Position numbers and translations under genes: made by a program
From: a virus
Length of the DNA: 64,000 bases
Virus record (IMG/VR): IMGVR_UViG_3300032285_001888
Coordinates: 8,934-72,933 of that record
Strand: one strand, 5' to 3'
Part shown: positions 24,067 through 47,374 of the stretch, in pieces
Numbering within the stretch: position 1 is the first letter of the stretch
Layout: each line of letters opens with the position of its first letter
The notes under the pieces: model-generated
The model's input: only the letters and a program-made list of their open reading frames with translations
What the model was told of the DNA's origin: nothing
Database searches by the model: none

Positions 24067-24075
24067 GGTTAAACG

Positions 24076-25020: not shown

Positions 25021-25023
25021 CAC

Positions 25024-25995: not shown

Positions 25996-26000
25996 TCTAA

Positions 26001-26978: not shown

Positions 26979-27000
26979 ATATACGGGAGACATATTAAAC

Positions 27001-27696
27001 ATGACACAGAAATTTTCAATACACCTTTCTATAGCAGAAAGCAGAATGTTACATCACCTTACTAAAGATCCCGACGACTGGATTAGAAATCTTATAGAGT
27101 GGAGAGTTAGAATAGTTGAAGATAGTTTATATCCACAAATAAAGCAACAGCTAATAGACGCAGGCGCAACATCTATTCCCGCTACTAGAGAAGGAATGAT
27201 TGCGGCTGGCAATCTACAGCCAAAAGATCCAAACTGGACTCCAGTGCAACGCGAGCATATAACTAATGACAACTGTGATATTCATACTATTGAATTAGCC
27301 GATGACGAAATTACAGTATTAGAATGGATGTATGAAAATCCTCACGAACACATACACGACTGGATTGTTGAAAGATGCCAGATTGGTATTAAAGAAAAAG
27401 CCGAGTTTGTTACCAAAGAATTACTAGCTGATCCTAGATGGACTGACCCTATTCCATTAGATCCAGAAGAAGTTCTTGATTTAATAGAGATGAGAACCGT
27501 GCATGATCATATGGAGCTTACAGGCGCGGCAACACGCGATCTAGTCGAAAATTCAGCCAACTCTGATCACGTGCCCTTAACTGTGCCATTTCATCGATAC
27601 CTACATCATGATGATGTACCAGCATTTCCTACACCGTCTAGAGGACCAGACTCGGAAGCAGGGCCAAATACTACTCCGCATCCGGAAGCTAGATAA
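27001..27696 (+). CDS. Hypothetical acidic protein with internal duplication; possible fibre assembly chaperone
   Basis: 231 aa with a GGAGA SD and an upstream TAAATA. Two related halves (IHLS.AE...DPDDWI.N.IEWR; IELA.DE...NPHEHI.DWIVER). Lies directly after the C1q fibres. Confidence 0.6.
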   Translation: MTQKFSIHLSIAESRMLHHLTKDPDDWIRNLIEWRVRIVEDSLYPQIKQQLIDAGATSIPATREGMIAAGNLQPKDPNWTPVQREHITNDNCDIHTIELADDEITVLEWMYENPHEHIHDWIVERCQIGIKEKAEFVTKELLADPRWTDPIPLDPEEVLDLIEMRTVHDHMELTGAATRDLVENSANSDHVPLTVPFHRYLHHDDVPAFPTPSRGPDSEAGPNTTPHPEAR

Positions 27697-27700
27697 AATT

Positions 27701-27725
27701 AAAAAGCACCCTAGGGTGCTTTTTT
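27701..27725. terminator. Bidirectional intrinsic terminator
   Basis: Perfect palindrome AAAAAGCACCCT|AGGGTGCTTTTT with A/T tracts on both sides, between convergent operons. Confidence 0.9.
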
Positions 27726-29343
27726 AATCTTCATTATTAAAGTGTGTTTGTTTAAGATACTGGTAATGACTAGGACATTTAGCCGCCGTAAGTTCATTTT
27801 GAACTTTTTTACGATTCCAATAATTTAATGTATTCTGCGTTAAATAACCAGTCTTGAGATGGGACGGAGTGATATATAAATCATCGTATAGATCTTTTTC
27901 CATGGAATATCTGTTAAGTGGAATTGTATGATTACCTACGAAAATATCAGGAATACCACCAGTATGAAATCCTAGCTCATGTTTTTGTAACATCGAACCT
28001 GCTAGCTCCGAAGACATTGTATGCAATTCTGCTAGTTGCTTATCAACCAATCTGTGTTCAACTTCTACTTGTTCAGTAACATGTTTCCAGTAGGGAGTAT
28101 CACGTCTTGAAGACATTGAGTAGTGGAGCGTAACAAAAACTTTAAAAGTTTTCATAGTCACATTGGCCATATAATTAAACCAATCTACGTGTATTTTATT
28201 AACTTGCTCATGCTCTAAAGTTTGATATAATAAAATCAACATTTCTTGCACACTATATAGGCCTGTGCTTTCTAACGGTTCGATAAATGCATAACTTAAC
28301 CCAACTCCTACTACATTTTTTTCCCAACATTTATCGTGACATCCATTTTTAATTTTAACTAGTCTAAATTCTAAGTTATCGGCACGATTAGGATCTAGAT
28401 ATGTCATCTTGTCGCTGTTAAGATATGCTTTATATTCTGCTAATGCATCTTCTTCACTAATAAATTTAGTGCTAAAAACATATCCGCTACCTATACGATG
28501 ATATAACGGAATGTTCCATACCCAACCGTTGTTATAGGCTGTGCAATTGGTAACATTTTCCATCTCTAGTTCTTTATCATGATACGGCACATGACAAGTC
28601 CACGCACGATCATTTGGCAACCACTTGTTAAAACTTTCAAAAGGAACACCCATCGTCTGCTCTAGTAGCAATGATCTAAATCCAGAACAGTCGACAAATA
28701 AGTCTCCTTTGACGTGTTCACCGTTCTGTAGTACTAGATAGTCAATGTAACCGTCATCTTCTTTAACAATATCAGTAATATGTTGTTTTATGTAGGTAAC
28801 ACCGTTAGGTATAGCAAATTTATCTTTTAGAAATATTCCAAATTTTGCCGCATCCATATGATATGCTACATCATTCTTAAAACTATAATTTTCTAGTTTA
28901 TGTTTTTTATTATCGCATATTTTATTATTGTAAATTAGTGGCATGCAACTATACATACACTCGTAGAAATCATTCCAGGGAGTTTCGGGATGTTTTAATT
29001 TTTTGTAGTACCAGTCATGTATTCCGTTGGTTGTATTCTTAATATCCTTAATGCCAAACGGATAATAAAATGCTTCGCCTTTTTTATAAAAATCTGTAAA
29101 TTTAATGCTTAATTTATGAGTAGCATTACAGTGAGGCATCCAATCTTCATCCTCTAAATCTAGTAAATGCAGAAATAAGTTCAATGTGCCCAGAGTCGAT
29201 TCACCAACTCCTACTGTAGGGATATCAGGACTTTCTACTAGGGTGATTTCTTTAGAAGGAAATTTCTTAGAAAGCAAGGCCGCTGTCATCCATCCCGCAC
29301 TTCCACCACCTACAATGACGATTTTTTCTATGGGTTTTTTCAT
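27724..29343 (-). CDS. Flavin-dependent halogenase, tryptophan halogenase family
   Basis: GGGSAG FAD loop, VGESTL, catalytic Lys in NATHKLSIKF, GWVWNIPL (WxWxIP) and FIEPLESTG. Confidence 0.9.
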   Translation of the reverse strand: MKKPIEKIVIVGGGSAGWMTAALLSKKFPSKEITLVESPDIPTVGVGESTLGTLNLFLHLLDLEDEDWMPHCNATHKLSIKFTDFYKKGEAFYYPFGIKDIKNTTNGIHDWYYKKLKHPETPWNDFYECMYSCMPLIYNNKICDNKKHKLENYSFKNDVAYHMDAAKFGIFLKDKFAIPNGVTYIKQHITDIVKEDDGYIDYLVLQNGEHVKGDLFVDCSGFRSLLLEQTMGVPFESFNKWLPNDRAWTCHVPYHDKELEMENVTNCTAYNNGWVWNIPLYHRIGSGYVFSTKFISEEDALAEYKAYLNSDKMTYLDPNRADNLEFRLVKIKNGCHDKCWEKNVVGVGLSYAFIEPLESTGLYSVQEMLILLYQTLEHEQVNKIHVDWFNYMANVTMKTFKVFVTLHYSMSSRRDTPYWKHVTEQVEVEHRLVDKQLAELHTMSSELAGSMLQKHELGFHTGGIPDIFVGNHTIPLNRYSMEKDLYDDLYITPSHLKTGYLTQNTLNYWNRKKVQNELTAAKCPSHYQYLKQTHFNNED

Positions 29344-29347
29344 TTTT

Positions 29348-30559
29348 TTATTCTTTAAAATAGTTATAATTCAGTTTTTTATCAATAATCCTAAGATTAG
29401 TAGGACTAAAAAACCATGGTGTTCCCACTAACGGAGTTCCTTGCGCATCGTTTTTTTTGTATTCAGCTACTGTATCTGCAAACATTTTACTCTTATTTAA
29501 TCTAGTGATAGCCTTATGCCTGGCAAAATTCCAAAACTTACTATCAAACATCGAGCCGCCGTGATATAGATAAGATAACATATCTTCCAAGGATTTTGCC
29601 ATTCCATCAAAATTAGTATTCATAAAGAATGAATCATATTTTTTTGTGTTTGATAAATGCTGGGCAAACATATCAGCAATAGCTACGTAGCAAAATATAG
29701 AACTTGCACTTAAAGGTTCAAAAAATAAAGCTCTATTACCGTTAAGCAGTATCCGGCCATCCATTATTTTTTTAGAGTAATAGGATTTAAACTTATATTC
29801 TATAACATCTTCTTTTTCAATTTTTTTAGAAAACATAGTTGACATTTCTGTCAACGCACTAGCATCATCGGTTAGATCACTATTAAACAAATATCCATAA
29901 GTATGTCTAGTAGTCAATGGAATTCCAAATGTCCAACCATGCTCGGTTGCGATGTGTTCTGTATATAGTTCTAGTTCCGCTAGGTGTGGTGGAACACTAT
30001 AGACAAAACATGTATTAACCGGAGAGCAATCGCTGATATGATAGTTTGTATAATCTGTTGGGAATCCTCTACAATCAATTACATAATCAAATTTTTCAAT
30101 ATTATCGTTTATTTTTATGTTAGCACAATTAAACCCATTTTCTATACTTTCAACTTTACCTTCTAAAACTTTAAATTTTTTAGGCCATAAATCTTTAAAT
30201 CTTTTAAATGCAAAATCTTTCAATTTAAAATTATTAAAATGTGCGGCAACACCGGCACCGAACAACGGATTAACCCAATCATGTTCTCGCCAGTTTATAT
30301 ATTTTGTTCCAAATTTAAAAGTGCCATCTAATTCTTTTAGATCTTCAACATGACTAAATTGCATTCCGGTTTGTAAGGCGGCTATAAAATTAGGATTAGT
30401 ACTTTCACCTATACCTAAGATAGGTGTTTCCGGATCATACACAGACACAACGTCCCATTTGTTAGATAACCAAGGCAACAGTACTGATAATGTAACGATT
30501 CCGGCGGATCCTACTCCAACAACTGCTAGTCGAAATTGTTTATTTGAACTCGGGACCAT
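29348..30559 (-). CDS. Divergent tryptophan-halogenase-family flavoprotein
   Basis: GVGSAG, IGEST, GTFKFG and IDCRGF are present, but GWTFGIPL and FFEPLSASS deviate from the halogenase motifs. Confidence 0.8.
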   Translation of the reverse strand: MVPSSNKQFRLAVVGVGSAGIVTLSVLLPWLSNKWDVVSVYDPETPILGIGESTNPNFIAALQTGMQFSHVEDLKELDGTFKFGTKYINWREHDWVNPLFGAGVAAHFNNFKLKDFAFKRFKDLWPKKFKVLEGKVESIENGFNCANIKINDNIEKFDYVIDCRGFPTDYTNYHISDCSPVNTCFVYSVPPHLAELELYTEHIATEHGWTFGIPLTTRHTYGYLFNSDLTDDASALTEMSTMFSKKIEKEDVIEYKFKSYYSKKIMDGRILLNGNRALFFEPLSASSIFCYVAIADMFAQHLSNTKKYDSFFMNTNFDGMAKSLEDMLSYLYHGGSMFDSKFWNFARHKAITRLNKSKMFADTVAEYKKNDAQGTPLVGTPWFFSPTNLRIIDKKLNYNYFKE

Positions 30560-31115
30560 ATATCCAACCTACAATAACATGCCTAGTTCCTTTAGTTACT
30601 GGAGTTACGCGATGTGTACAAAACGAAGGAAATATTGTAATGTATCCTTGCTTCCTTACCGTCGGATCATTATGTGCCGGCATAAATTCTAAATCTCCGC
30701 CCTCGTACTCCGCTGGATCAGTTAACTGAATACTAAAGGATAATTTTCTGATATGAGTATCTTGTATTAAATCAGTATGCCATATATAATGATCACCCCT
30801 ATCTGCTGTATATTTAAAAACAAGAATAGGATCTTTTGAAAATAGACCGTCTAGGTGATATCTAAATGTTTCAGAATTTGTTCTAAAAATAGACCTAAAG
30901 ATATTATCCTCTAATTCTGTAGTTATTCCTGACCTAGAAAGAAGAACACTTCTGTGTTGTTTAGCAGTAATAAATTGACCAAACTTAAAAACCGTGCCCT
31001 CAATCCACCCAGATGATGATGCAATAATTTCATTACATTTTTCAACTGATAAAAATGGATATGTGATAGCTCGAGGTAAAGGTTTCCTTGTAGCTAAGGG
31101 CTTGTCTACTATCAT
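30540..31115 (-). CDS. 2OG-Fe(II) dioxygenase, prolyl-4-hydroxylase/PKHD-like
   Basis: WHTD...RKLSFSIQL...YEGGDL...HRVTPVTKGTR: HxD...H triad plus the 2OG-binding Arg. Confidence 0.9.
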   Translation of the reverse strand: MIVDKPLATRKPLPRAITYPFLSVEKCNEIIASSSGWIEGTVFKFGQFITAKQHRSVLLSRSGITTELEDNIFRSIFRTNSETFRYHLDGLFSKDPILVFKYTADRGDHYIWHTDLIQDTHIRKLSFSIQLTDPAEYEGGDLEFMPAHNDPTVRKQGYITIFPSFCTHRVTPVTKGTRHVIVGWIYGPEFK

Positions 31116-32734
31116 TATTCTTTACCGGCGTATATATTATCTCGAAGATATTCATAATGTGACGGTGCTGTTTCTATTAGTGAATTAATATATTCTTTCT
31201 TTTGATCCCAATAATCTTGTGTTTGAGATGTAAAGAACTCAGGAGCCTGCCCATGACGTGCTTCAATTAACTGTTTAACTATTGATAGTTGTGTTTTGCT
31301 TACAGGCAGAACATCCATGCCTACTAAAATATCAGGCATTCCACCCATACTTGCATCTCCTGGTAAATGATGCATCTGAAGTAGTTTGACAGCAAGGTCA
31401 CTACCGGCGGTAGGTATCTGATTAAAACTACGATCAAGCATTAGTGAATCCATCTCAATCTCTTCAGTTACATGTTGCCAGTAAGGAGTATCACGTCTTG
31501 ACGAAAATACATAATGGTATGCTACAAAATTTCTAAAGCCATCCATAGTTAGATTACAAATATAGTTAAAGTGATCAACATGGATCTTATTAACTTGCTT
31601 GTTGCGCAGTGTTTCGCATAGTTTTAATAACATTTCTTGCACACTTAGCAAGCCTGTACTTTCTAATGGTTCTACAAATGCATAACTTAGTCCAATTCCT
31701 ACACAGTTTTTATGCCAAGCACGTTCATGTACTCCGTTTTTTATCTCAATGAGCCTGAATTCTAAGAATTCAGACCTTATAGGATTAGGCAATCGCATTT
31801 TATCACTATTTAAATATGTCTTGTACTCTTCTAATGCCTGCTCTTTACTGATAAATTTATCACAGAATACATAACCACTTCCTATTCTGTTGTACAGCGG
31901 GATATTCCACACCCAACCGTTATTAATAGCTGTACAGTTGGTAACATTTTCCATTTCTCTATTCTTATCTGCATAGGGAATATGAGTCACCCATGCATGA
32001 TTGTTAGGCAAGTGACTTGAATATGAATAGAACGGTACTCCCATTGTTTGTTCTAGTAGTAAAGATTTAAATCCTGTGCAGTCTATATACAGGTCGGCCT
32101 CCACTATATCCCCATTATCTAATTTTAATCCATTAATATAGCCGTCTTCTTCTAATAGTACACCTTCAATATTTGCACTAATATGGACTACTCCGTTAGG
32201 AATACACACTTTTTCTTTTAGAAATTCACCAAACAAGGTAGCATCCATATGATATGCACTATCGTTTTTCCAGCTGAAACCTGGAAGCTGTCCCTCTTTA
32301 TTATCAAATATTTTACTTTGATAAATCATAGGCATTGAACTGTAAACACTTTCATAAAAATCATTTTTATCTAGATCTGGATTTAAGATCTTTTTAACAT
32401 ACCAGTCAGTTGCACCTTGCTGTGTATTTTGCAGATCTTTAACTCCAAACGGGTAATAAAAGGATTCGCCTTTTTCGTAAAAATCTGTAAATTTAATAGC
32501 TAATTTATAAGTGGCATTGCAGTAGGACATCCAATCTTCGTCTTTGAGTCCTAAAAGTCCAAGATATTGATTGATTGTGCCTAGTGTTGACTCTCCTACT
32601 CCGATGATTGGAATATCGGGACTTTCGATAAGTGCCACTTCCATGTCCGGAAATTGAGTTGACAGCATAGCCGCCGACATCCAGCCAGAACTTCCGCCAC
32701 CGGCAATAATAATTCGTTTAATTGGTTTTTTCAT
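31115..32734 (-). CDS. Flavin-dependent halogenase, tryptophan halogenase family
   Basis: GGGSSG, VGESTL, NATYKLAIKF, GWVWNIPL and FVEPLESTG; close paralogue of 27724..29343. Confidence 0.9.
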   Translation of the reverse strand: MKKPIKRIIIAGGGSSGWMSAAMLSTQFPDMEVALIESPDIPIIGVGESTLGTINQYLGLLGLKDEDWMSYCNATYKLAIKFTDFYEKGESFYYPFGVKDLQNTQQGATDWYVKKILNPDLDKNDFYESVYSSMPMIYQSKIFDNKEGQLPGFSWKNDSAYHMDATLFGEFLKEKVCIPNGVVHISANIEGVLLEEDGYINGLKLDNGDIVEADLYIDCTGFKSLLLEQTMGVPFYSYSSHLPNNHAWVTHIPYADKNREMENVTNCTAINNGWVWNIPLYNRIGSGYVFCDKFISKEQALEEYKTYLNSDKMRLPNPIRSEFLEFRLIEIKNGVHERAWHKNCVGIGLSYAFVEPLESTGLLSVQEMLLKLCETLRNKQVNKIHVDHFNYICNLTMDGFRNFVAYHYVFSSRRDTPYWQHVTEEIEMDSLMLDRSFNQIPTAGSDLAVKLLQMHHLPGDASMGGMPDILVGMDVLPVSKTQLSIVKQLIEARHGQAPEFFTSQTQDYWDQKKEYINSLIETAPSHYEYLRDNIYAGKE

Positions 32735-32758
32735 AGTTAGTCCTTTTAACCCTTTGGG

Positions 32759-32764
32759 TATTTA
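32759..32764 (-). promoter_or_regulatory. Putative late promoter (TAAATA) inside the enzyme cluster
   Basis: ATAAATA on the - strand in the 40-bp gap upstream of halogenase 31115..32734, followed by an AAGGA SD. Confidence 0.55.
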
Positions 32765-32774
32765 TTGATGTATT

Positions 32775-33410
32775 TTAAACGTAGACAACATTCTGGTTAT
32801 CTCTAGAATCTCTAAAGTAGTCTCTATGAAAATTCCAAGATATTGAAATACGAGTACTGTCTGTCTTATTTTCATTTACACAATGTTGCAACCATCCGGG
32901 GAATAAAACAATTTTACCTACTGCTGGTTTTACTTCTGCATATTTTTCTACCATATTTCCAAACGGAAATACTTCTTGTTGCAGCCACGGAACTGGATTC
33001 ATTATACCAAAATCACCATCTTTTCCGGTAGTCTGAAAGTAGTAAGAACCGGATATAAGCGCATCTTGATGTTGATGCCAGTCTTGTTTTTCTCCCTTTG
33101 ATGTTTTATTAATCCAGCTATGCCTTAGAGATACAGGAACAGGATGCCATGCCTGTGTCTTATCAATGTATATCTTAAGATGTTTTTCAATATATGCCCT
33201 TAAATGCACTAGTTCAAAATCTTGTATTGTATTATGACGTGCTTTAATGTTAGTTTGAACACCATCATTCCATCCTGGCGGATTTGAAAACGAATCAGTA
33301 GCCTCAATAAGTGGTAATTTCTTTTTAATCTCGTCTTGAATAAGGAAAATTTCTTGAGAAGTTCCTTGATGTTCATAGATTACGGTTGGGAACAGAGGTC
33401 TTATCGGCAT
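32775..33410 (-). CDS. Putative 2OG-Fe(II) oxygenase (TIGR02466-like, HxH type)
   Basis: SWIN...WHQH...ISGSYY...LFPGWLQHCV...RISISWN. Confidence 0.85.
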   Translation of the reverse strand: MPIRPLFPTVIYEHQGTSQEIFLIQDEIKKKLPLIEATDSFSNPPGWNDGVQTNIKARHNTIQDFELVHLRAYIEKHLKIYIDKTQAWHPVPVSLRHSWINKTSKGEKQDWHQHQDALISGSYYFQTTGKDGDFGIMNPVPWLQQEVFPFGNMVEKYAEVKPAVGKIVLFPGWLQHCVNENKTDSTRISISWNFHRDYFRDSRDNQNVVYV

Positions 33411-34109
33411 TTATAGTCCCTTATCTTTTAAAAGTTTTTTGCGTTTAAAATACTGTCCGTTAAGGGTAAATGCTACCTGCCCTACTTGTTTGATATATTC
33501 ATCCATAGAAACTGTGTGCATTTTAATATCGATATCAGATTCCGATAATGGTATTATGTGAGCTAGTTCTTTATTCAGCGGAATAGTTAGTTCCTTAGGA
33601 TACATCACTTTTGGTATTAGTAAATTTACACTTGTAGTATGTTGATATTTGTAATCAACTACTCCGTTTACAACAAACGGTTTAAACTGATCGTCGTGCC
33701 AAAAACAATTAGTGTATAAAAAATTGACTCCAGTTTTTTCTTTAATTCTCCACGGGCTTACTAACTTTGCATGGAAATGATTTTTAAGAAAATCTTCGCC
33801 CCATTGTTTGGAATTATGCGCTTCGATAGAATCTTCTGGGAACCATTTTAATAATCCGCCTTCGGTTCCTAGCCAAATCTCTTCCCAGCTTTGTAAAATA
33901 AATCCAGTCCTGTATAAGGTCCCGACACCTGGGCATGTCTTCATAGTGCCGCGCATAGGTCCGTTATGCTTTACTGTAGGTGGCAAGTTTTTCCAGAAGG
34001 GGGGTAATCTTTCTTCAGCATGCAATATAGGAAATAACTTTTCCACGTCTGGAACATGTGTAAAACAATCTAACACTATCTTGGGTTTTTTAAGAAAAAA
34101 TGAAAACAT
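33411..34109 (-). CDS. Uncharacterised protein, paralogue family X copy 1
   Basis: PPFWKNLP...TMKTCPG...TGFIL...KLVSPWRIK...GVVD...IIP; related to the next two ORFs. Confidence 0.7.
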   Translation of the reverse strand: MFSFFLKKPKIVLDCFTHVPDVEKLFPILHAEERLPPFWKNLPPTVKHNGPMRGTMKTCPGVGTLYRTGFILQSWEEIWLGTEGGLLKWFPEDSIEAHNSKQWGEDFLKNHFHAKLVSPWRIKEKTGVNFLYTNCFWHDDQFKPFVVNGVVDYKYQHTTSVNLLIPKVMYPKELTIPLNKELAHIIPLSESDIDIKMHTVSMDEYIKQVGQVAFTLNGQYFKRKKLLKDKGL

Positions 34110-34113
34110 CGAA

Positions 34114-34815
34114 TTACCTATAAGTTTTTTTTGTATGCATCAGCTGTGCGTATAGACCAGACCAATAAGTACCGAGTCTATATTTAAAACTAGATTTGTT
34201 TATTTCATCGCTCCTGAACCCAGACGACATTTGCCAGTCTTCTCTTTTAAAAGGAAAAACAACCATCAAGGGGTCCCCCGGACTTATCATAAATTCTTCT
34301 TGTTTAACAAGACCAACAAATCCAATCGGTTCGTCATGTTTATCAGTATCAACCACTCCTGGGAATAGCGAATATTCTTTTCGCATATGATAAAATGGGT
34401 CGAATAACATACAACTGTAGCCAGGCGGAGTCTTAATATACCAGGGATTATTTAATTTTAGATAATGATTCTTATACCCAGCATATTCAAATTGAGCTTG
34501 CCACCAGGGATGCTTGCTAATAACATCATTTGTATCTCTAGATCTAGTATCAAAGTCCTTGATAAACCTAGGATCTATTTTTTGTTTTATTTGAACTTCA
34601 TAAGATGCACGTATAATATAGCCGGTGGTCATGTAGTCTAATACAGGAACACATCTTTTAATGGTCGGAGTATGCGGTTTAGTATAGGGAGAAATCTCCG
34701 GAATCTCAATAGGAGTATCTTTGTACCATTCGGGTATCATTTTACCTGCCGGAAGAACCGGAAACATTTCTAATGCTTCAACATCGGATGTAGTAAATTC
34801 TATTATATTAGTCAT
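34114..34815 (-). CDS. Uncharacterised protein, paralogue family X copy 2
   Basis: PEWYKDTP...TIKRCVPVLDYMTTGY...PWYIKTPPGYS...PGVVDTD...GDPLMVVFPFKRE. Confidence 0.7.
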   Translation of the reverse strand: MTNIIEFTTSDVEALEMFPVLPAGKMIPEWYKDTPIEIPEISPYTKPHTPTIKRCVPVLDYMTTGYIIRASYEVQIKQKIDPRFIKDFDTRSRDTNDVISKHPWWQAQFEYAGYKNHYLKLNNPWYIKTPPGYSCMLFDPFYHMRKEYSLFPGVVDTDKHDEPIGFVGLVKQEEFMISPGDPLMVVFPFKREDWQMSSGFRSDEINKSSFKYRLGTYWSGLYAQLMHTKKTYR

Positions 34816-35567
34816 TTGAATTCTTTAGGAGTATGAAACATACGTTGATAAATGTTATACAAGTAAAATTTTGATCGTTTTAAGATATCGCCAGATACAA
34901 TTTCTGATTCCCATGTATCACGTTTAAATGGAATAATCTGTAATACTGGATCTCCTGCCACAAATCTTACCTCAGTGTCAGTGCCAGACATAAATCCCAC
35001 CACAGGAATTTTTTCATTAAATTTGTCAGTATCAATTATTGCAGGCATTATATTAACATCTGTTCGGAAAAAATAATAAGGTTGCATGATTAGACAACTA
35101 TATCCCGGCGGCGTTATTATAGACCAATCTAGTGTAAACTTAAAATAGTTTGCCGGACTTTTTTTATCCTGCATCTTTGCCGGACACTCGGGATTAAAAT
35201 ATACATTAACCGGGTTACTTGAATGCAATCCCATTTCCTGTTCAGTTTTTACAAAACCTGTACCGGGTTCTCTTTGTTTATACTTTTCTTCAGTAGCACC
35301 AGCTTTAACTATAGTCATTTGCGGAACAAAATTAACAAGTTTTTCTTGTATTCGATTCTCATATCCAGCACGAAGGATGTATCCTGAATTTAATAAATCA
35401 TCAACTGGCACACATGCACGTATGTTTCTGACAGCATTTTCATCAAACTTGTAAGATTGTCTCGGACCTTGCAACCCAGTATACCATGAAGGTAGCATAT
35501 CTTTAGCAGGAACAGGTGGCCAATGTTGTTTTAAAAGTTCATCGTCTGTTTTAAATTTAATTTTCAT
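34812..35567 (-). CDS. Uncharacterised protein, paralogue family X copy 3
   Basis: PSWY...NIRACVPVDDLLNSGY...WSIITPPGYS...PAIIDTD...GDPVLQIIPFKRD. Confidence 0.7.
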   Translation of the reverse strand: MKIKFKTDDELLKQHWPPVPAKDMLPSWYTGLQGPRQSYKFDENAVRNIRACVPVDDLLNSGYILRAGYENRIQEKLVNFVPQMTIVKAGATEEKYKQREPGTGFVKTEQEMGLHSSNPVNVYFNPECPAKMQDKKSPANYFKFTLDWSIITPPGYSCLIMQPYYFFRTDVNIMPAIIDTDKFNEKIPVVGFMSGTDTEVRFVAGDPVLQIIPFKRDTWESEIVSGDILKRSKFYLYNIYQRMFHTPKEFK

Positions 35568-36160
35568 TCGGGCATCTCGTCAGCTTCTAACAACCAAGTT
35601 GTTAATATATATTTGTCTGTACTACCAATGGGGGGATTTCCTCTATGTGTGTGAGTCCAATCGGCCGGCCAAATTAATAATTTATTTTTTTTAGGTTTAA
35701 TTCTAATATTTTGATATAAAAATTCAGTTTCGCCAGCATCGTCTATGTCGTTCATGTATAATTGTACAACTAATCTACGCTTGGAGTCATCCTTTAAGGC
35801 TTCATAATGCCATTGATGAAACCCACCACCGGGTACAATTTTTTTCATTTTGATTTGCTCTGCTTTAAATGATAACTCTTGTAAAATACTAAATTTATCA
35901 GCGTATATAGGAATTATTTGCTTCCACAATACATCTAAGAAGTGGTTTATGTATTCGGGATGCAAGGTGTTAATTACCTTTGGATCTAAAAAATACAGTT
36001 GCTCATCGTCTTTCCAATGCTTTGGAATTTTATCTTGTTGATGTAGTTTTAAAGATGATATTTTATCATAGTAGGCAATAACTTCGTTGAAGTATGTATT
36101 CTTAAAATAGTTTTCAAAAATACCGATAAAGCCAACGAATTCGTATTTTTCAAAATTCAT
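35564..36160 (-). CDS. 2OG-Fe(II) oxygenase (HxE type)
   Basis: GGGFHQWHYE...YMND...GETEF...WPADWTHTHRGNPP...KYILTTW. Confidence 0.85.
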   Translation of the reverse strand: MNFEKYEFVGFIGIFENYFKNTYFNEVIAYYDKISSLKLHQQDKIPKHWKDDEQLYFLDPKVINTLHPEYINHFLDVLWKQIIPIYADKFSILQELSFKAEQIKMKKIVPGGGFHQWHYEALKDDSKRRLVVQLYMNDIDDAGETEFLYQNIRIKPKKNKLLIWPADWTHTHRGNPPIGSTDKYILTTWLLEADEMPE

Positions 36161-36855
36161 TTGACTATCTCTGCTAATTTGACTCGGTAATTACCTGCAA
36201 TCGATATTCTAACATCGTCAGAAGTATAAAACGGATGAACTTGATGATGCAGATCTGCAGGAAATATACAGATGCGACCTTCCCAAGACTTGTCTACGGG
36301 TAACGAAAAAATAGATTGCTTACCTAGAACATCTGGATAAATGAATTCAAATTGTGCAGATCTGTTTTTTATTAAATCAGGATTGGCTAAATTCTCTTGT
36401 TCGTCTTTGATATTATAGGGAACGTATGCCCAAATTACAAAACTATAAATTCCAGTATGGTTATGCAGGGGCATAAATTCTCCCGCACGTTGAAAATTTA
36501 GCCACATTCTTTCTAAGTCTAAGTTTATATCACTATTAGTTACATCCGTGGTGAAATTAAACATTTTATTGAAGTAGTTATATTTAGATTCGTAAAAACT
36601 TACCAACTTTAATACTTCTTTATTCATGTCACTATATAAGTCTGGAGAAAAATAGTAATCGTCAGAATATCCTGCTTTTTTCTTATGGAAGAATCTTAGC
36701 ATGTCTTTAGCTTCTGCTGGGTCTTTTCCTTTATCGAGGAAATCCTGCCGCATTACTTCAACTTCTTTTTTGATCCGTTGGAACAAGAAGGGGTTTAGTT
36801 GGTCGACTAGAACTCCAACGTTTGGTAAATCTTGCATCATTGCTGTGGCACTCAT
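36157..36855 (-). CDS. Putative 2OG-Fe(II) oxygenase (HxH type)
   Basis: WLNFQ...PLHNHTG.YSFVIW...FPADLHHQVHPF...RISIAGN. Confidence 0.85.
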   Translation of the reverse strand: MSATAMMQDLPNVGVLVDQLNPFLFQRIKKEVEVMRQDFLDKGKDPAEAKDMLRFFHKKKAGYSDDYYFSPDLYSDMNKEVLKLVSFYESKYNYFNKMFNFTTDVTNSDINLDLERMWLNFQRAGEFMPLHNHTGIYSFVIWAYVPYNIKDEQENLANPDLIKNRSAQFEFIYPDVLGKQSIFSLPVDKSWEGRICIFPADLHHQVHPFYTSDDVRISIAGNYRVKLAEIVK

Positions 36856-36872
36856 AGCAATAATTATCTAAT

Positions 36873-38405
36873 TTACAGTGGGCGTTTGGTAGTCTTGGCA
36901 GAATACTTTATAAAGTTGATGAAATCGGAGTACTTCATCTTATCTTTAACAGTTTGAGCTATCATTTCTTCATAGTCATATATAGACCTAGCTTGTGATA
37001 CAGGCTTCAAATCATCTAGTAGATTTTTTGATATTGAGGGATGTAGTTTTCCTATACCCGAAAGGACATAGCTATACAACCCCCAGTCTGCATTGCCAAA
37101 CATGATGTCAAAGTCTCTGTTAGTAGGAGTTCGAACTTTGCAACTTTCTAGTAGTTCTTTAACAAAATCTGTAGCAGTTTCTCCACTAGTAATATATTTC
37201 CAGAATTCGCTATCAGTCCTCCCACCCATGTAATGTATAACTAGGAAGTCTTTTAGAGAATCATATAATTTAGCTGTGCGTCGGTTATACAGGTTAATAT
37301 TTCCATCGTTTACAGTGGCTTCTAATGTAGGTTTTAAAAATTCAACTGTAAAGTTTAGCAGTTGCACTATAGTAGTATGTATACTAGTTGCTTCTAATGG
37401 TTCAGCAAACGCAGAAGCTAGCCCTATAGCTAGACAATTCTTTTCCCATGCCTTTTCTAATCTGCCAGTATCAAATTTTAAAGTTCTAATAGGAGTTATT
37501 TTTCTTCCTAATATTGTTTCTATCTCTGCATGTGCTTGATCCGGAGTTATAAAGTTATCGTCAAATACATAACCGCATCCCTTACGATCCTGCACAGGAA
37601 TTTGCCACATCCATCCTGCTCGTTGAGCCCATGCTGTAGTCCATAGTTCAGGCGTTTCTGTTTCTGTTTCATAGTCTAGTAAAAAAGGTATTGCAGAATT
37701 TACTGGCAAATTTTTCTGATAGCTAACCCATTTTACTTCTAGTTTTTTCATAAGAACTTGTTTAAAACCGCTAGCATCTATAAAAAAGCCGCCATCTACT
37801 AGCTTTCCAGATTTTAACAATAACGAGGCAATACTACCTTGTTCGTTTAGATTAACATCTATAATTTCATCGTCAATATGGTTAACTGTATCCTTACGAA
37901 GTGTAATTTTTTTAAAATAAGCACCAACCTTGTGCGCATCAAAATGCAATGCACTATCTAAATTTCTATCAAAAGTAAAATTACTTTTACTAAATGGTGA
38001 TATTCCAAGATCTACCGCCTGACCATGTAATGAGCTTAGATGATTTTTGTTTTTATCTAACACGTGATAATGAGCAAAAATCCCATCCATTATAATATTT
38101 GTACTAGAAGTTCCTACAATAGGACCAAAATATTGTTGATTTAAATCAGGCGTCCAAGCCCGATGCATTATTCCATATTTTAATGTTGCGCCTGTTTCTC
38201 TTAGGAATTCTAATATGTCACAGCCGCTGTCGAAAATATCGTTTTTAATTATCGATGTTAATAATCCTGTTGATCCCTCGCCTGCACCAATAATACCAAT
38301 TTGGGAAGATTCTATTACAGTCACCGAATGCATAGGGCGCATCTTGCTAATCATCAAGGCAGCTATCCACCCTGCTGTACCTCCACCTACAATAACTATT
38401 TTCAT
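36873..38405 (-). CDS. Flavin-dependent halogenase, tryptophan halogenase family
   Basis: GGGTAG, GAGEGST, GATLKYGI, HFDA, GWMWQIPV and FAEPLEATSIH. Confidence 0.9.
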   Translation of the reverse strand: MKIVIVGGGTAGWIAALMISKMRPMHSVTVIESSQIGIIGAGEGSTGLLTSIIKNDIFDSGCDILEFLRETGATLKYGIMHRAWTPDLNQQYFGPIVGTSSTNIIMDGIFAHYHVLDKNKNHLSSLHGQAVDLGISPFSKSNFTFDRNLDSALHFDAHKVGAYFKKITLRKDTVNHIDDEIIDVNLNEQGSIASLLLKSGKLVDGGFFIDASGFKQVLMKKLEVKWVSYQKNLPVNSAIPFLLDYETETETPELWTTAWAQRAGWMWQIPVQDRKGCGYVFDDNFITPDQAHAEIETILGRKITPIRTLKFDTGRLEKAWEKNCLAIGLASAFAEPLEATSIHTTIVQLLNFTVEFLKPTLEATVNDGNINLYNRRTAKLYDSLKDFLVIHYMGGRTDSEFWKYITSGETATDFVKELLESCKVRTPTNRDFDIMFGNADWGLYSYVLSGIGKLHPSISKNLLDDLKPVSQARSIYDYEEMIAQTVKDKMKYSDFINFIKYSAKTTKRPL

Positions 38406-39001
38406 TTTGGTATATCCTTGTCTAGAGCAAATATAACATTTATAACAAACCTGTCGTTACTTATGATAGGATTACTACCTGCATGAAATAAATTGCTAGG
38501 GAAAACCACTATCCTTCCCTGTTTTGGCACAACTGCTTCCTTGATCGTTAATGAAGTAATACTACTATCCTCACTATAGATTTCGTTAAAAATATATGTA
38601 GGACCATCACTGTTGTTAATATAATACACTGCGGTAGTCCACGCAACATTTCCGTCATCAGTGTGTGCTAAATTATAGCTAAGTTCTTTCCTATTATTAA
38701 TGATGCTAGTATGATTAATCTTAATACGTTGCAACATTCCTATAGCGCCAAATTCTTTTTCTATAGCATCCATTAAAGGTTTAAGAAAAATAAAAAACAT
38801 TGACTTGTGTCTAGATAGATGGTCAAATGCAATATGATAAAATTGACTACTATCTTGTGTGTTAGCATCTTCTAAGACGTTTTGTCCTTGTATTCCCAAG
38901 GCTGTTTTATCTTTAAATTTCCATGTTAGTTTACTATCCATGGCATCTACCAATGCTTGCTGAAAGTCAAGAGAGACAAATTCATCTATAACTGTAATCA
39001 T
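38402..39001 (-). CDS. 2OG-Fe(II) oxygenase
   Basis: AHTD...AVYYINNSDGPT...FHAGSNP...RFVIN. Confidence 0.85.
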   Translation of the reverse strand: MITVIDEFVSLDFQQALVDAMDSKLTWKFKDKTALGIQGQNVLEDANTQDSSQFYHIAFDHLSRHKSMFFIFLKPLMDAIEKEFGAIGMLQRIKINHTSIINNRKELSYNLAHTDDGNVAWTTAVYYINNSDGPTYIFNEIYSEDSSITSLTIKEAVVPKQGRIVVFPSNLFHAGSNPIISNDRFVINVIFALDKDIPK

Positions 39002-39634
39002 TTATAACCCTTCGGTATCACTTATGCGGCGTAGCATAATATTCATAGCAACAACAACTCTCAATGTTCCGGTTTCGTGCCGGGGAGTATGATGTTCAAC
39101 CCATGACGGAAATACTATCACATCACTTTCTTCTACTGTTGGCATTTGTTTATTAGGATAGTAAATTGACGGTACATAGTTTTTATTTTTAGTTGGAATA
39201 ACAGATTTCTTTTGTCGAGCGCACGGGTCGCAAAAAATAGTTCCGTATGCATCATCTAGCACAACATAGTGTACCGCAGACCATTGAATAGTTTTAGGTC
39301 CACCGGTGTGATCGTGAACAAATTCAGAAGTAGTGTTAGTAGTAAATCCGTACCAACAAGTAAATTTAAAAGTCCATCCGTTATTAAAATCAACTCCGGT
39401 GCTTTCTAAGAATTTCTTAACGTCATCTTCGTAGAATTTTGATAACATAGCCCATGGTACTTTTACAGCGCCGGGGCAGTAATCAGTATAGATGTTAGCA
39501 AGTACATCGTTAGCAGGCTCATTTAAAAAATTCTGATACACATTATCCATCAGATATTTTTTGATTTTATCATGATTAGATGCTTTAAATTTAAAAACGT
39601 TTGTTGTAAAAATTGGAATACTATCTATATCCAT
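39002..39634 (-). CDS. Putative 2OG-Fe(II) oxygenase (HxH type)
   Basis: VHDH...WSAVHY...FPSWVEHHTP...RVVVAMN. Confidence 0.8.
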   Translation of the reverse strand: MDIDSIPIFTTNVFKFKASNHDKIKKYLMDNVYQNFLNEPANDVLANIYTDYCPGAVKVPWAMLSKFYEDDVKKFLESTGVDFNNGWTFKFTCWYGFTTNTTSEFVHDHTGGPKTIQWSAVHYVVLDDAYGTIFCDPCARQKKSVIPTKNKNYVPSIYYPNKQMPTVEESDVIVFPSWVEHHTPRHETGTLRVVVAMNIMLRRISDTEGL

Positions 39635-39636
39635 AT

Positions 39637-40317
39637 CTACACCTCAGGCCTATCATACTTGTATTGGTCTATAAAGAACAAAAGAGTTGTTCGCGTCTCT
39701 CCCGAAGCGGTTCTGAAATTATTAGGTCTATGCCACGATTTAGCATCATAGGCTAGTATTCTATTAAAAATATTACCTATTCTAATAGTCTCTTCAAAAT
39801 TTTCATGATTAGCGTTAAGATCTTTTTTGTATGCTTCGGTAGCTACTCCGGAAGTATTAAATTCTTTTCTAGATGGGAAATCAACCTTTTCAAAATCTTG
39901 CGATCCTTTTTTAAGGAATATAGAAGTACCGCTATTAAAGTTTTTCTCAAATTGATTAAGATATACTAGCCCTGCTAGATTGACGTCATCACTGTGTATC
40001 CATCCTTCATTGGCATCAACATCATCATACACATCGTTTTTATGAAAACTTACATGAATTACAAATCTGCTAATACCTGGAAATATTTCTCTTGCTATTT
40101 TTTTTGCAAAAAAGACTCCAAACTCTTTAGTAGCAGGGTCTATAGACTCTAGTAAGTTTATAGTACGCTTACCAGGCCATCTAGTGTCACCTGTATATTC
40201 TTGTTTATTTGCTAGATCTAGTATTGTTTGTGTATCTTCAAAGAAGTTATCTTTACAAACTAATGTACCTGCCAAGGGGTGAAAGGTTTTATCCATGTTA
40301 AATAATGTGGGATTCAT
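39637..40317 (-). CDS. 2OG-Fe(II) oxygenase-like protein
   Basis: DNFF...WPGKRT...WIHSD...AGLVYL...SGTS...FNR...WHRP...RTTLLFF. Confidence 0.8.
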   Translation of the reverse strand: MNPTLFNMDKTFHPLAGTLVCKDNFFEDTQTILDLANKQEYTGDTRWPGKRTINLLESIDPATKEFGVFFAKKIAREIFPGISRFVIHVSFHKNDVYDDVDANEGWIHSDDVNLAGLVYLNQFEKNFNSGTSIFLKKGSQDFEKVDFPSRKEFNTSGVATEAYKKDLNANHENFEETIRIGNIFNRILAYDAKSWHRPNNFRTASGETRTTLLFFIDQYKYDRPEV

Positions 40318-40904
40318 GCTAGTTTCCTGGCAATATTAAAAACCATTGTAATACGACCTTCGTCTGTATTTCTAGATTTTGGAACTAGATGCGGCAACCA
40401 TGACTCCCACATTACAAGTAATCCTGCTTTGGGGGTTATTGTAATTTCATTTATATTAGTTTGTGTATCTTCTAGTTTTGGTAAAGATACAAATTGTCTA
40501 AACGGTCGAGGATCAGTTATTATTAGCGGCGCTGAATCTTCAGGAACCTGAAGATATAGTAGACCGGATAATATCGATCCCGGATGCGTATGCTCATCAT
40601 GAGACGCACCGTCAAACATTTCGCTTACGAATATAAACGTATCAAATGTAAGTTCCTTATCATTGTATCCAATATCTTTTAGATACTTTCTACCTATTTT
40701 TTCTATAGCATCTTTAAATGGTTTAACATCTGTCCTGTCTGCTATCCCACCTGGATTCCTATATCCATAGGAAGTTGTATACCCCCATTTGGTTTTAGAA
40801 ATACTAGTATCTTCTAAATATTTTTTTGCTACTGGCAACATTGAATTAGCTAAAATTAATTGCATTTCTGATAGAATTGCCGTAGGAAAAATATACTGTA
40901 TCAC
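40314..40904 (-). CDS. Putative 2OG-Fe(II) oxygenase (TIGR02466-like, HxH type)
   Basis: IFPT...HTHPGSILSGLLYL...DPRP...SWLPHLVP...RITMVFN. Confidence 0.85.
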   Translation of the reverse strand: MIQYIFPTAILSEMQLILANSMLPVAKKYLEDTSISKTKWGYTTSYGYRNPGGIADRTDVKPFKDAIEKIGRKYLKDIGYNDKELTFDTFIFVSEMFDGASHDEHTHPGSILSGLLYLQVPEDSAPLIITDPRPFRQFVSLPKLEDTQTNINEITITPKAGLLVMWESWLPHLVPKSRNTDEGRITMVFNIARKLA

Positions 40905-41503
40905 AGCGAAGGGCCCTTAGGATTACGTATTAAATCAAAGGCATGAAAATAATTTGGACCTAATGCTTTTACATAATGTAAAAAAATCTGAATGCATTCT
41001 ACTCCTGTAAATTTTTCTCTCCAATGGTCAGCTGTCATACCTTTATAAATCATTGCCTCACCGGGCCGTAGTGTGATACTAGCAGATGAGCCATCGGGTT
41101 TTTTAATGAAAATAGGCCAAGCATCTCCACTAATATTAAGAGTAACACTTATTTCACATGCTTCGGCATCTATATGGGGTTTTAATTCTGCCCCCATTTT
41201 ATACCATCTTGCGTATGCGTATGTAGGATAAAGTCGCTCCCCTACTAGATCATTCATAAGAAAGATTTTTGAACGCAATAAGTGTTCGGCAACACTCCAT
41301 CCGTACGATGCTGGAGAACCGGGAACTTGAGGATCCGGCTTCTTAAATTTTTCTATACAGTGTTTTTTAAAAGATTTTGCAATCTCCTCCAACGAGCCAG
41401 GATGCAGAAAATTTTCTACTACAAAATAGTTGTTTTCTTCTAATTCATCTCTTAAGTTTTTTTGAAGAAAGCTATCCTGATAGACGGTGTGTGTTCTTCT
41501 CAT
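40901..41503 (-). CDS. 2OG-Fe(II) oxygenase
   Basis: PTYAYARWY...LKPHID...CEISVTL...WPIF...HWRE...QIFLHYV. Confidence 0.85.
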   Translation of the reverse strand: MRRTHTVYQDSFLQKNLRDELEENNYFVVENFLHPGSLEEIAKSFKKHCIEKFKKPDPQVPGSPASYGWSVAEHLLRSKIFLMNDLVGERLYPTYAYARWYKMGAELKPHIDAEACEISVTLNISGDAWPIFIKKPDGSSASITLRPGEAMIYKGMTADHWREKFTGVECIQIFLHYVKALGPNYFHAFDLIRNPKGPSL

Positions 41504-41505
41504 AA

Positions 41506-41841
41506 TTAATCAAATTTAAATTCGACAGGGCCAACAGGCTCGTCCGGATCAATCACACACCATGCATCGCTTTCTGGCATGCACCAAAACGTTTCTCCAC
41601 CGATGAGTATTTTTGATCCAGCAGCCGGATGGAACATTATTTCGTCGCCTACCTTAACACTCATTGGAATAAGTATTGCAGTTTTTTCAGAGATCTTTCC
41701 GGGACCTGCCGCCACTACTACACCTTTTGATGTTTTTTCATCTTGCGATGCGATCGGTATGTAAATACCACCCGCTGAAGCCTTTTCAGCTTCTACTCTT
41801 TTGACTAATAGTCTATCATGGACTGGTCTTAAAACTGGCAT
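41506..41841 (-). CDS. groES: Co-chaperonin GroES (Cpn10)
   Basis: LRPVHDRLLVKR, mobile loop AGGIYIP, GVVVAAGPG and VKVGD; AGGAGA SD upstream. Confidence 0.92.
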   Translation of the reverse strand: MPVLRPVHDRLLVKRVEAEKASAGGIYIPIASQDEKTSKGVVVAAGPGKISEKTAILIPMSVKVGDEIMFHPAAGSKILIGGETFWCMPESDAWCVIDPDEPVGPVEFKFD

Positions 41842-41851
41842 TTTCTCTCCT

Positions 41852-45212: not shown

Positions 45213-45218
45213 AGTAAC

Positions 45219-45240
45219 ATATTTATCGATAGCTAAATAT
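45219..45240. promoter_or_regulatory. Divergent pair of late promoters
   Basis: ATATTTA-tcgatagc-TAAATAT gives TAAATA on the - strand (45220-45225) for gp14 and on the + strand (45234-45239) for gp13. Confidence 0.65.
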
Positions 45241-45257
45241 AGTAAGAGGACAAAAAC

Positions 45258-46046: not shown

Positions 46047-46047
46047 A

Positions 46048-46263: not shown

Positions 46264-46279
46264 TTTGAACTAAAAATTC

Positions 46280-46309: not shown

Positions 46310-46332
46310 AGCACTACTTACAGGGGATTCTT

Positions 46333-47342: not shown

Positions 47343-47374
47343 CATTAACAGTATGTCATCATGGAGATAACACA

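Follow-up and report, generated by a model that had tools for sequence, protein, structure and literature searches.

Halogenase genes and multiple 2-oxoglutarate (2OG) oxygenase genes have been noted in cyanophages since 2005-2010 and have been explained only by guesses, and a virus record with an expanded set of both raises the question of what these enzymes modify. The set lies at 27724-41503 of a 64,000-nucleotide (nt) stretch of viral DNA (IMG/VR record IMGVR_UViG_3300032285_001888, positions 8,934 to 72,933; this whole stretch is called the window below). The interval is filled by 16 consecutive minus-strand open reading frames (ORFs), numbered g1 to g16 from the low coordinate, which are spaced by -20 to +40 nt, overlap at 8 of the 15 internal junctions, and comprise four flavin-dependent halogenases, nine 2OG-Fe(II) oxygenases, and the three paralogs g6-g8. 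An earlier note on the window had described this co-oriented, often overlapping run of genes with the same composition, and the description holds up against the ORF list, Pfam, the fold and iron triad of g16, BLASTP, and phrog_7084. The same note had proposed that the neighboring fiber proteins are the substrates. The answer that we favor, tentatively, is that the cassette enzymes act on phage-made late proteins, chiefly on the fiber-tip proteins with which the cassette co-varies.

The window is the structural module of a T4-like phage, as judged from Pfam and PHROG scans of its ORFs. The nearest gp15-like proteins are those of the jumbo phages Phosso, Atu_ph07, and PA5oct (32-38% identity), and the carrier is placed by sequence in a jumbo-phage lineage. 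On one side, the cassette continues from the neck genes gp14 and gp15, a Nudix gene, and GroES, and on the other, it meets the end of a converging fiber operon, made up of a 201-amino-acid (aa) fiber-anchor-like protein, three C1q-like paralogs of 314, 323, and 325 aa that have a common N-terminus, and an acidic 231-aa protein. Pfam C1q matches the 314-aa protein, and PHROG tail-protein families match the 201-aa and 325-aa proteins. No family in Pfam, PHROGs, NCBIfam, or PADLOC matches the 231-aa protein, which could serve the fibers as a chaperone or be a partner or a substrate of the cassette enzymes. In relatives, its gene is invariably found after the C1q-like trio and before the first halogenase, and it diverges fastest of the genes in the block (23-57% identity).

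The slot that the cassette occupies has a different content in different relatives. A search with gp15 found 80 loci, of which 38 have at least 4 kb after the Nudix gene (near-identical contigs being kept), and tblastn with the window proteins detected at least five cassette-family genes in 19 of these 38, one to four in 6, and none in 13. The DNA of one relative, L001, is 97% identical to the window over 41853-53459, and the identity stops at the Nudix stop codon, beyond which lies a different set of halogenases and oxygenases, with 30-48% protein identity and no GroES. By these alignments, the slot is a swap site in this jumbo-phage clade, and the variable block has one edge at the Nudix stop codon and the other within or beyond the fiber operon. 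GroES, which accompanies type-A cassettes in relatives, belongs to the stretch replaced in L001. The Nudix gene is conserved in relatives without a cassette and is therefore not part of it. The terminator between the converging operons is only a weak candidate for the low-coordinate edge, since it depends on one contig of the X2 run that, at a likeness threshold of 90, joins 27728 to 41853 with only 28 nt on its shorter side; this join has the shape expected of a form without GroES and the cassette, but it is a hint of another phage with the same terminator right after the Nudix gene and not proof of a deletion form. The alignment with L001 has one other break, at 46048-46272 (the region of a 71-aa DUF6171 gene), which is a second small indel or replacement. 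Elsewhere, a 706-aa ORF on the opposite strand (L104:1449-3569, minus) is inserted between the Nudix gene and GroES, at the edge of the variable block.

In some lineages, other enzymes stand in the same place. The slot ORFs of six relatives with few tblastn matches were scanned with Pfam, except in L017 and L061, whose ORFs were only listed. A radical S-adenosylmethionine (SAM) enzyme of ~480 aa (Radical_SAM plus Fer4_12) is encoded in the slot of L019 (12916-14373, minus) and L078 (14141-15583, minus), flanked by small unknown genes and a fiber protein with a Peptidase_S74 chaperone domain; the ORFs of L017 match those of L019 in size and order, and it is by that likeness only that a radical SAM enzyme is placed at L017:3496-4953 (minus). 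These three belong to the 13 relatives in which tblastn detected no cassette-family gene. L078 additionally has one g2-type halogenase, the slot of L028 holds two oxygenases, and in L026 and L061 the Nudix gene runs directly into a giant fiber gene. The swap site, the cassette-less relatives with radical SAM alternatives, and a divergence that tracks the C1q tips rather than gp15 are the points that are new here.

The earlier note had named linkage and co-variation with the fiber genes as its own check, and both came out in its favor. A search of IMG/VR with the C1q-like 325-aa protein found 9 loci, and in all nine the C1q trio and the 231-aa gene are followed by a convergent cassette beginning with a g1-like halogenase. 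Among 12 contigs, mean cassette identity to the window follows C1q trio identity (Pearson 0.94, Spearman 0.79), whereas among 11 it does not follow gp15 identity (Pearson 0.05). As limits on this result, several contigs are near-identical, the effective lineages number ~5-6, one reference serves for all identities, and best hits may mix paralogs. A search with the g7 family returned at least 599 viral stretches, of which 80 were kept; 12 of these 80 (L102-L111, L139, and L144) have C1q-like or 231-aa-like fiber genes together with cassette-family genes, although in L139 the matches are weak and a g7-like gene is the only cassette-family gene detected. In 15 more distant stretches of the 80, a g7-like gene lies within ~2.5 kb of a convergent 201-aa-like fiber gene, and in many others, often short contigs, no fiber homolog was detectable. 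A relative whose gp15 is 91% identical, G001, has three Gly_rich_2 fiber-tip paralogs in place of the C1q-like trio and a different enzyme set, which is partly co-directional with the fiber operon and includes a JmjC_2 gene. Within the clade, these comparisons of gene content show that the island is inherited and exchanged with the fiber-tip genes as one variable block.

The linkage reaches beyond this clade. The g1 protein search returned 67 phage records, mostly cyanomyoviruses, and phages of Synechococcus, Prochlorococcus, and Pelagibacter carry related clusters. Judged by gene order, the cassette belongs to a known kind of cluster, all 16 of its genes can be assigned to phage families already on record, and the novelty implied by the earlier note was overstated, as the same cluster type is already annotated in cultured cyanophages; the view that it is an expanded member of an island between the distal tail-fiber genes and the neck genes gp13-gp15 in T4-like aquatic phages is well supported by these comparisons. 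In the cyanomyovirus counterparts, namely Syn9 gp41-gp54, S-RIM44 genes 101-109, and a smaller version in Sf-CH11 (genes 92-96), halogenase genes come directly after fiber or fiber-tip genes and are followed by a run of ~200-aa genes; gp13-gp15 are next in S-RIM44 and Sf-CH11, and the Syn9 stretch examined ends before any neck gene. By Pfam and tblastn, the order in Syn9 and S-RIM44 is two to three Gly_rich_2 fiber-tip paralogs, a 153-164-aa gene, two halogenases, a g7-like gene, Oxy_5, DUF6445, Oxy_3, and JmjC_2 genes, and then a g16-like gene. G001 has this order from the fiber onward, with the remainder of its slot seen only as tblastn matches. From the fiber end, the window matches the cyanophage succession of halogenase(s), phrog_7084, Oxy_5/Oxy_3/DUF6445, and phrog_2954, even though gp15 is 28% identical between the window and distant phages that have this island order.

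There are also differences. The cyanophage clusters are co-directional with the fibers, whereas the window island is convergent and follows gp14-gp15-Nudix-GroES; it is larger, with four halogenases of three subtypes and three DUF6065 paralogs; it has no JmjC_2 gene, which Syn9 and S-RIM44 do have; and its fiber tips are C1q-like rather than of the Gly_rich_2 type. In Pelagibacter phage HTVC008M, four oxygenase genes and a g16-like gene diverge from gp13, and a halogenase lies between gp16 and gp17. High oxygenase numbers are known from cyanophages, with 10 genes in S-CREM1 and 24 in S-SCSM1 according to PMC9964418.

The layout of the window bears on when the cassette is expressed. The minus-strand unit runs from gp14 (45212) through gp15, Nudix, GroES, and the cassette to a hairpin at 27701-27724. 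The earlier note had seen no obvious terminator along it, and in a scan of 45212 to 27724, no terminator-like site had more than 8 pairs in its stem. That hairpin, with a 10-bp stem, sits between the stops of the 231-aa gene (27696) and g1 (27724) and is common to the converging fiber operon and the cassette, again as had been claimed. The TAAATA-type motifs that the note had placed upstream, at 45220 and 32759, are both ATAAATA, a shortened form of the T4 late-promoter box; they lie 8 nt before gp14 and 25 nt before g4, the latter in the cassette's sole intergenic gap of more than 20 nt. Seven of the eight ATAAATA copies in the window sit 1-45 nt upstream of a same-strand start, compared with 21 of 583 for heptamers of the same composition (binomial P ~6e-10), and the starts so preceded are those of the 4444-aa fiber gene, the 231-aa gene, g4, gp14, the sheath gene, and two others. 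It is a reasonable inference that the cassette is transcribed late, because ATAAATA is positioned just before starts, including those of gp14 and g4. No RNA run was found to contain the sequence, and two transcriptome papers make no mention of these genes. The full T4 late box, TATAAATA, was ruled out as the signal, having one window copy (9693-9700) against 9.5 expected by chance, whereas the shorter ATAAATA is gene-positioned. ATAAATA is also rarer than its permutations (8 versus 12-41 copies in the window) and seems to be avoided away from gene starts. A scan for sigma-70-like promoters gave no excess over shuffles (72 found versus 76 expected).

The variability of the slot could also have a simpler explanation, which we regard as rather unlikely, in which the boundary between the fiber and neck modules tolerates insertions and accumulates auxiliary enzymes, forming a hyperplastic-region accessory island that has no functional tie to the fibers and whose enzymes act on host small molecules or on 2OG/nitrogen status. 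It would suit the spread from 0 to at least 14 cassette-family genes at the slot among relatives, and it would suit the base composition, which is typical of accessory genes: G+C is 0.35 in the cassette (0.32-0.38 in each of the 16 genes) versus 0.40-0.43 in both flanks, a pattern repeated in relatives, Syn9, and S-RIM44. The halogenase of S-PM2, which is an exception to the usual arrangement, is located elsewhere, near tRNA and hli genes, and VirX1, a cyanophage enzyme and the nearest solved halogenase, is known for small aromatic substrates. A variable region within the cyanomyovirus structural module, at g15-g18, is mentioned in PMC2984593 (citing Millard 2009), and the window slot resembles it in lying in the structural module beside gp15 and in differing in content between close relatives; it differs in that the g15-g18 region is described as holding host-derived metabolic genes, whereas the slot holds oxidative enzymes of phage-typical families bordering the fiber tips, with no host-like metabolic genes detected there by Pfam or PHROG. 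For the cyanophage 2OG oxygenases, PMC3037559 contains the proposal of a role in 2OG/nitrogen signaling under nitrogen stress, and for the halogenase, antibiotic protection or the status of a 'transient' gene has been proposed. Against an accessory island, Kyanoviridae and the jumbo clade, distant as they are, both have these families next to fiber tips in one common order, which exceeds what random accumulation would give, and the carriers have unrelated hosts, which makes a host-specific pathway unlikely. The late-type promoters also fit poorly with metabolic takeover, the genes for which T4-like phages usually express in the early or middle phase.

Whether a protein could be the target depends in part on what the individual enzymes are. 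The four halogenases match Pfam Trp_halogenase (PF04820, curated cut-off 21 bits; Table 1), and all of them have the N-terminal GxGxxG motif for FAD binding and the catalytic Lys, aligned with those of RebH and VirX1. WxWxIP and the Glu of E-P-L-E-S are kept in g1, g4, and g11, whereas in g2, aligned with RebH at E 3e-20, the Lys is kept, WxWxIP reads GWTFGIP, and Ser stands at the position of the conserved Glu; with these substitutions, g2 may be inactive or may act on a different class of substrate. The paralogs g1 and g4 are 58% identical by BLASTP, and relatives carry separate orthologs of each. In g11, identity is 29-31% to g1 and g4 and 37% to the halogenase of HTVC008M. The best solved relative of g1 is VirX1 of cyanophage Syn10 (PDB 6QGM; residues 5-435, E 1e-116), with which it has the FAD motif, Lys, WxWxIP, and EPLES in common; g1 is only ~45% identical to it, however, and may differ from it in activity and halide preference, and g11 and g2 belong to other subfamilies, g2 without the conserved Glu. 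No flavin-reductase family is among the Pfam and PHROG matches of the window ORFs, and a host flavin reductase may supply the cassette halogenases.

Among the oxygenases, g3, g5, g9, g10, g13, and g15 pass the cut-off of a 2OG-oxygenase profile and g14 that of DUF6445, whereas g12 scores below the cut-off and g16 has no Pfam match. The H-x-D/E...H iron triad is visible by eye in g3, g9, g12 (H-T-D plus a distal His), and g14 (H-S-D plus a distal His), and the four Oxy_5 proteins (g5, g10, g13, and g15) show H-x-H...H. The Syn9 homolog of g14, gp52, has a weak score on Oxy_3 too, and g9 is the best-conserved cassette gene (72-82% in type-A relatives). For g16, H110, D112, and H176 are invariant across 52 homologs, and the top Foldseek match of its model is the Pseudomonas putida EF-Tu prolyl hydroxylase 4IW3 (E 6.5e-10, template modeling score 0.67); there are at least 500 PDB matches at E <=0.001, and each top match named for a function among those listed is a 2OG oxygenase. 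By this model, g16 is a 2OG oxygenase with the double-stranded beta-helix fold, and the ferrochelatase label of phrog_2954 is rejected by the fold and the invariant iron triad. Labels of this kind recur, in that phrog_274 (g12) is called 'DNA endonuclease V' and phrog_1644 (g14) 'minor coat protein,' although both families look like 2OG oxygenases, and the Syn9 RefSeq annotations carry the same three labels.

Proteins other than fibers might be the targets, with the enzymes modifying host or phage proteins for counter-defense or takeover, for example by hydroxylating translation factors or ribosomal proteins or by masking structural proteins from host sensors, at a diversifying arms-race locus. 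This appears improbable to us. It would accommodate the swapping of the island between phages with a flank identity of 97% and its patchy content, as in arms-race islands; in the predicted structure, the fold of g16 is closest to an EF-Tu prolyl hydroxylase; and the slots of G001, Syn9, and S-RIM44 include JmjC_2, a family whose studied members hydroxylate ribosomal proteins. The modification of structural proteins as defense evasion is a speculation made in PMC12014285. The cassette, however, matched no system-specific anti-phage defense or counter-defense model in PADLOC, the sole matches being the generic 2OG models PDLC01653 and PDLC01587 (listed as CRISPR-Cas-associated) for g3, g5, g9, and g12; late expression would fit host takeover poorly, and the consistent adjacency to fiber tips would be left unexplained.

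The three paralogs introduce a further consideration. By BLASTP, g7 matches g8 at E 3e-33 and g6 at E 2e-7, and all three match phrog_7084, an overwhelmingly viral family with a weak correspondence to DUF6065, which 34 of 49 members match. The g7 model (predicted local distance difference test score [pLDDT] 90.4) aligns in VIA-align with African swine fever virus (ASFV) dUTPase at Z 12.2 over 122 residues at 3.0 A; ten dUTPase entries reach Z >=9.6, each of the 12 highest-scoring chains is a dUTPase, unrelated entries begin at Z 4.7, and the Foldseek E-values are only ~1e-3. From this model, g7, standing for the g6-g8 family, has a trimeric-dUTPase-type beta fold. Two other identities were rejected. 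Hidden 2OG oxygenases or cupins are countered by the dUTPase-like chains, with no cupin in the top 50. As dUTPases by sequence, the proteins lack the five motifs and a PF00692 match: Pfam dUTPase does not match g7 and touches 1 of 49 family members (E 0.02), a profile search of PDB sequences with the g7 family found no dUTPase, and by eye no equivalent of the C-terminal motif V was seen. What the family nearly always keeps is a stretch resembling dUTPase motif III, G-x-V-D-T-D, in which D156 is invariant and V155, T157, and D158 are each conserved at >=90%.

On these grounds, the cassette might work on nucleotides or phage DNA, through base hydroxylation or halogenation or through DNA repair, with the dUTPase-fold paralogs binding (deoxy)nucleotides and the upstream Nudix and the nearby deoxynucleoside monophosphate (dNMP) kinase being part of the same chemistry, although we consider this very unlikely. 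Besides the predicted fold and the motif-III-like stretch, the Nudix gene directly upstream of GroES and the kinase gene at 46333-47028 would fit, as would the name 'AlkB' borne by 2 of 90 g16 homologs, the DNA-repair role for Syn9 oxygenases (Weigele 2007, as cited in PMC3037559), and the finding of no canonical trimeric dUTPase (PF00692) in any of five related large phage records (G001, G002, G006, G007, and G008). These would be outweighed by other results: no cassette oxygenase matches the AlkB or TET/JBP nucleic-acid oxygenase families in Pfam at E <=0.01, the sequence match of the g7 family to Pfam dUTPase is confined to that single member, and the Nudix gene is kept in relatives without a cassette. 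The promoters, moreover, are of late type, whereas DNA-precursor enzymes are needed early. The five records underlie the loci L007, L052, L116, L130, and L061, respectively, and one of them is rated 98% complete; at least three (G001, G006, and G007) carry a DUF6065-type gene with the dUTPase fold.

We favor the modification of fiber-tip and other late proteins because the placement is conserved in very distant lineages and in both orientations, because the same slot holds other protein-modifying classes (radical SAM in L017, L019, and L078; JmjC_2 in G001, Syn9, and S-RIM44), because the carriers are independent of host, and because one report (PMC12801897) found a total of 23 proteins, a 2OG oxygenase among them, in virions purified from cyanophage S-SCSM2R. 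A further point in favor is that the solved structure closest in fold to the g16 model is a protein prolyl hydroxylase. In the mechanism that we envisage, transcription would start at the late-type promoter of gp14 and at the internal ATAAATA before g4 and would stop at the terminator common with the fiber operon; the oxygenases would hydroxylate side chains of late proteins using Fe(II), 2OG, and O2; the halogenases would modify aromatic residues using host-reduced FADH2, O2, and halide; and different enzyme sets would give chemically different virion surfaces. The broader version, that aquatic T4-like phages from cyanomyoviruses to the jumbo lineage carry swappable kits (hydroxylases and halogenases, with radical SAM enzymes in some lineages) that post-translationally decorate receptor-binding fiber tips, is possible but doubtful.

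Viral enzymes that modify the virus's own structural proteins are known in the mimivirus collagen lysyl hydroxylase and the PBCV-1 prolyl 4-hydroxylase, both 2OG oxygenases, of which the latter (5C5T) ranks 26th in the fold search with g16. These enzymes act on collagen-like or Pro-rich repeats, however, of which the window fibers have none, and those systems have no halogenases. The PBCV-1 work is cited in PMC9301287. Pathways for ribosomally synthesized and post-translationally modified peptides (RiPPs) with halogenases are alike in using flavin halogenases and oxygenases to modify a polypeptide made by the ribosome, but they differ from the window, which has no precursor-peptide gene, recognition-element protein, protease, or exporter, and the label 'RiPP-like' in the earlier note has to be dropped, as gaps of <=40 nt leave no room for a precursor-peptide gene. 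The statement in that note that the window has no genes for nonribosomal peptide synthetases, polyketide synthases, or transporters agrees with the Pfam and PHROG scans of the window ORFs, in which none of these families was found.

Several observations weigh against fiber tips as the substrates. Ten of the 13 relatives without cassette-family genes have a downstream fiber-gene homolog in the stretch examined, and the enzymes are therefore dispensable for fiber assembly. Genes that lie side by side between two recombination points should be inherited together even without a functional link, and the cassette and the fiber-tip genes, at G+C 0.35 and 0.43, do not have the appearance of one compositional unit. 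Apart from a four-unit Gly/Ser run in a 123-aa protein, collagen-like G-X-Y repeats are absent from the fiber proteins, and the analogy in which fiber repeats would serve as substrates of a prolyl 4-hydroxylase was dropped. The cassette contains no leader peptide or precursor gene within its gaps of <=40 nt. The fold match of g16 is generic, with the small-molecule enzymes SnoN and HygX scoring nearly as high, and the predicted dUTPase-like fold of g6-g8 could fit a nucleotide ligand better than a protein. VirX1 reportedly has small-molecule substrates, and we know of no flavin halogenase that acts on a folded protein. Our literature search found no chemical or proteomic evidence of modified fiber residues, and in the portion of a marine phage proteome paper that was available (PMC12014285), the terms hydroxylation and halogen are absent and the sole variable modification listed is Met oxidation. 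Nor did the search find a paper proposing fiber tailoring by these clusters, which is not proof, as key papers lay outside it.

The comparative pattern makes the old question of these enzymes testable in cultured phages. If fiber-tip modification is confirmed, hydroxyl and halogen groups added by the enzymes would determine host range or virion durability along with fiber sequence, and the fiber tips would be the first viral structural proteins known to be halogenated. The abundance of 2OG oxygenases and halogenases in cyanophages would be accounted for as well, host recognition by phages would gain a chemical dimension, and the clusters would be a source of halogenases that act on proteins. 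Otherwise, the island would be a well-delimited, mobile, late-expressed enzyme set whose substrate is to be sought among small molecules or nucleotides.

Table 1. Features of the window discussed in the text (positions in the window; halogenase values refer to Pfam Trp_halogenase)
Feature	Position	Strand	Size or basis
Giant fiber gene	1144-9672		2842 aa
Giant fiber gene	9721-23055		4444 aa
Distal fiber genes converging on the cassette	23461-27696	+	201-aa protein, C1q-like trio, 231-aa protein
Acidic 231-aa protein, last fiber-operon gene, His- and Trp-rich	27001-27696	+	
Bidirectional intrinsic terminator	27701-27724	.	10-bp stem, 4-nt loop, A run before, T run after
g1, flavin-dependent halogenase, VirX1 type	27724-29343	-	539 aa; E 1e-115, 387 bits
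g2, short divergent halogenase-family protein	29348-30559	-	403 aa; E 4e-33 in two stretches, 115 bits
g3, 2OG-Fe(II) oxygenase, prolyl 4-hydroxylase-like	30540-31115	-	2OG-FeII_Oxy_3 E 2.5e-13; phrog_61; weak NCBIfam PKHD-type hydroxylase match
g4, flavin-dependent halogenase, VirX1 type, g1 paralog	31115-32734	-	539 aa; E 6e-110, 369 bits
ATAAATA late-promoter-like motif	32759-32765	-	25 nt before g4 start
g5, 2OG-FeII_Oxy_5 / TIGR02466 oxygenase	32775-33410	-	Pfam E 9e-20; TIGR02466 72.7 bits, above cut-off
g6, g7, g8, paralogs of phrog_7084 / DUF6065	33411-35567	-	BLASTP, PHROG, g7 model
g9, 2OG-FeII_Oxy_3 oxygenase	35564-36160	-	Pfam, above cut-off
g10, 2OG-FeII_Oxy_5 oxygenase	36157-36855	-	Pfam E 1.6e-10
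g11, flavin-dependent halogenase, second subfamily	36873-38405	-	510 aa; E 2e-90, 304 bits
g12, probable 2OG oxygenase	38402-39001	-	Oxy_3 23.8 bits, below cut-off 27; phrog_274 E 2e-23
g13, 2OG-FeII_Oxy_5 oxygenase	39002-39634	-	Pfam E 2e-8
g14, DUF6445 protein, 2OG-oxygenase-like	39637-40317	-	DUF6445 34.6 bits versus cut-off 24
g15, 2OG-FeII_Oxy_5 / TIGR02466 oxygenase	40314-40904	-	Pfam, above cut-off; NCBIfam
g16, 2OG oxygenase, prolyl-hydroxylase-like fold (predicted)	40901-41503	-	AlphaFold pLDDT 92.8; phrog_2954; no Pfam match
GroES co-chaperonin gene	41506-41841	-	Pfam Cpn10 E 3.5e-24
Nudix gene	41852-42301	-	Pfam/PHROG
gp15-like gene	42283-43752	-	Pfam/PHROG
gp14-like gene	43752-45212	-	Named by position and a PHROG labeled 'virion structural protein'
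ATAAATA late-promoter-like motif	45220	-	8 nt before gp14 start
dNMP kinase gene	46333-47028		

Elsewhere in the window, the products include small fiber proteins, gp13-, gp14-, and gp15-like neck proteins, a 1174-aa sheath protein, the tube, and the large terminase, and gp32-, UvsX-, and UvsY-like proteins are encoded as well. The two giant fiber genes are adjacent, and both match the same PHROG tail-fiber family, with the N- and C-terminal parts of the proteins mapping to different portions of the tail-fiber profile. Rfam and tRNA scans of the window found nothing, and a repeat search of 27000-46000 found nothing beyond the paralogy of g1 and g4. Megablast with the cassette and with 41506-50899 found no near-identical DNA among cultured or deposited phages, and IMG/VR holds hundreds of relatives of the window, on contigs of up to 265 kb. 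For the region 26001-46000, the metagenome runs X3 and X5, labeled as freshwater and lake water, contain contig pieces with 94-100% identity to the cassette and the neck genes, with pieces of 97-100% identity in a run labeled as lake water. The habitat of this halogenase-rich phage lineage thus appears to be low-halide water, because the matching pieces occur in freshwater and lake water runs.

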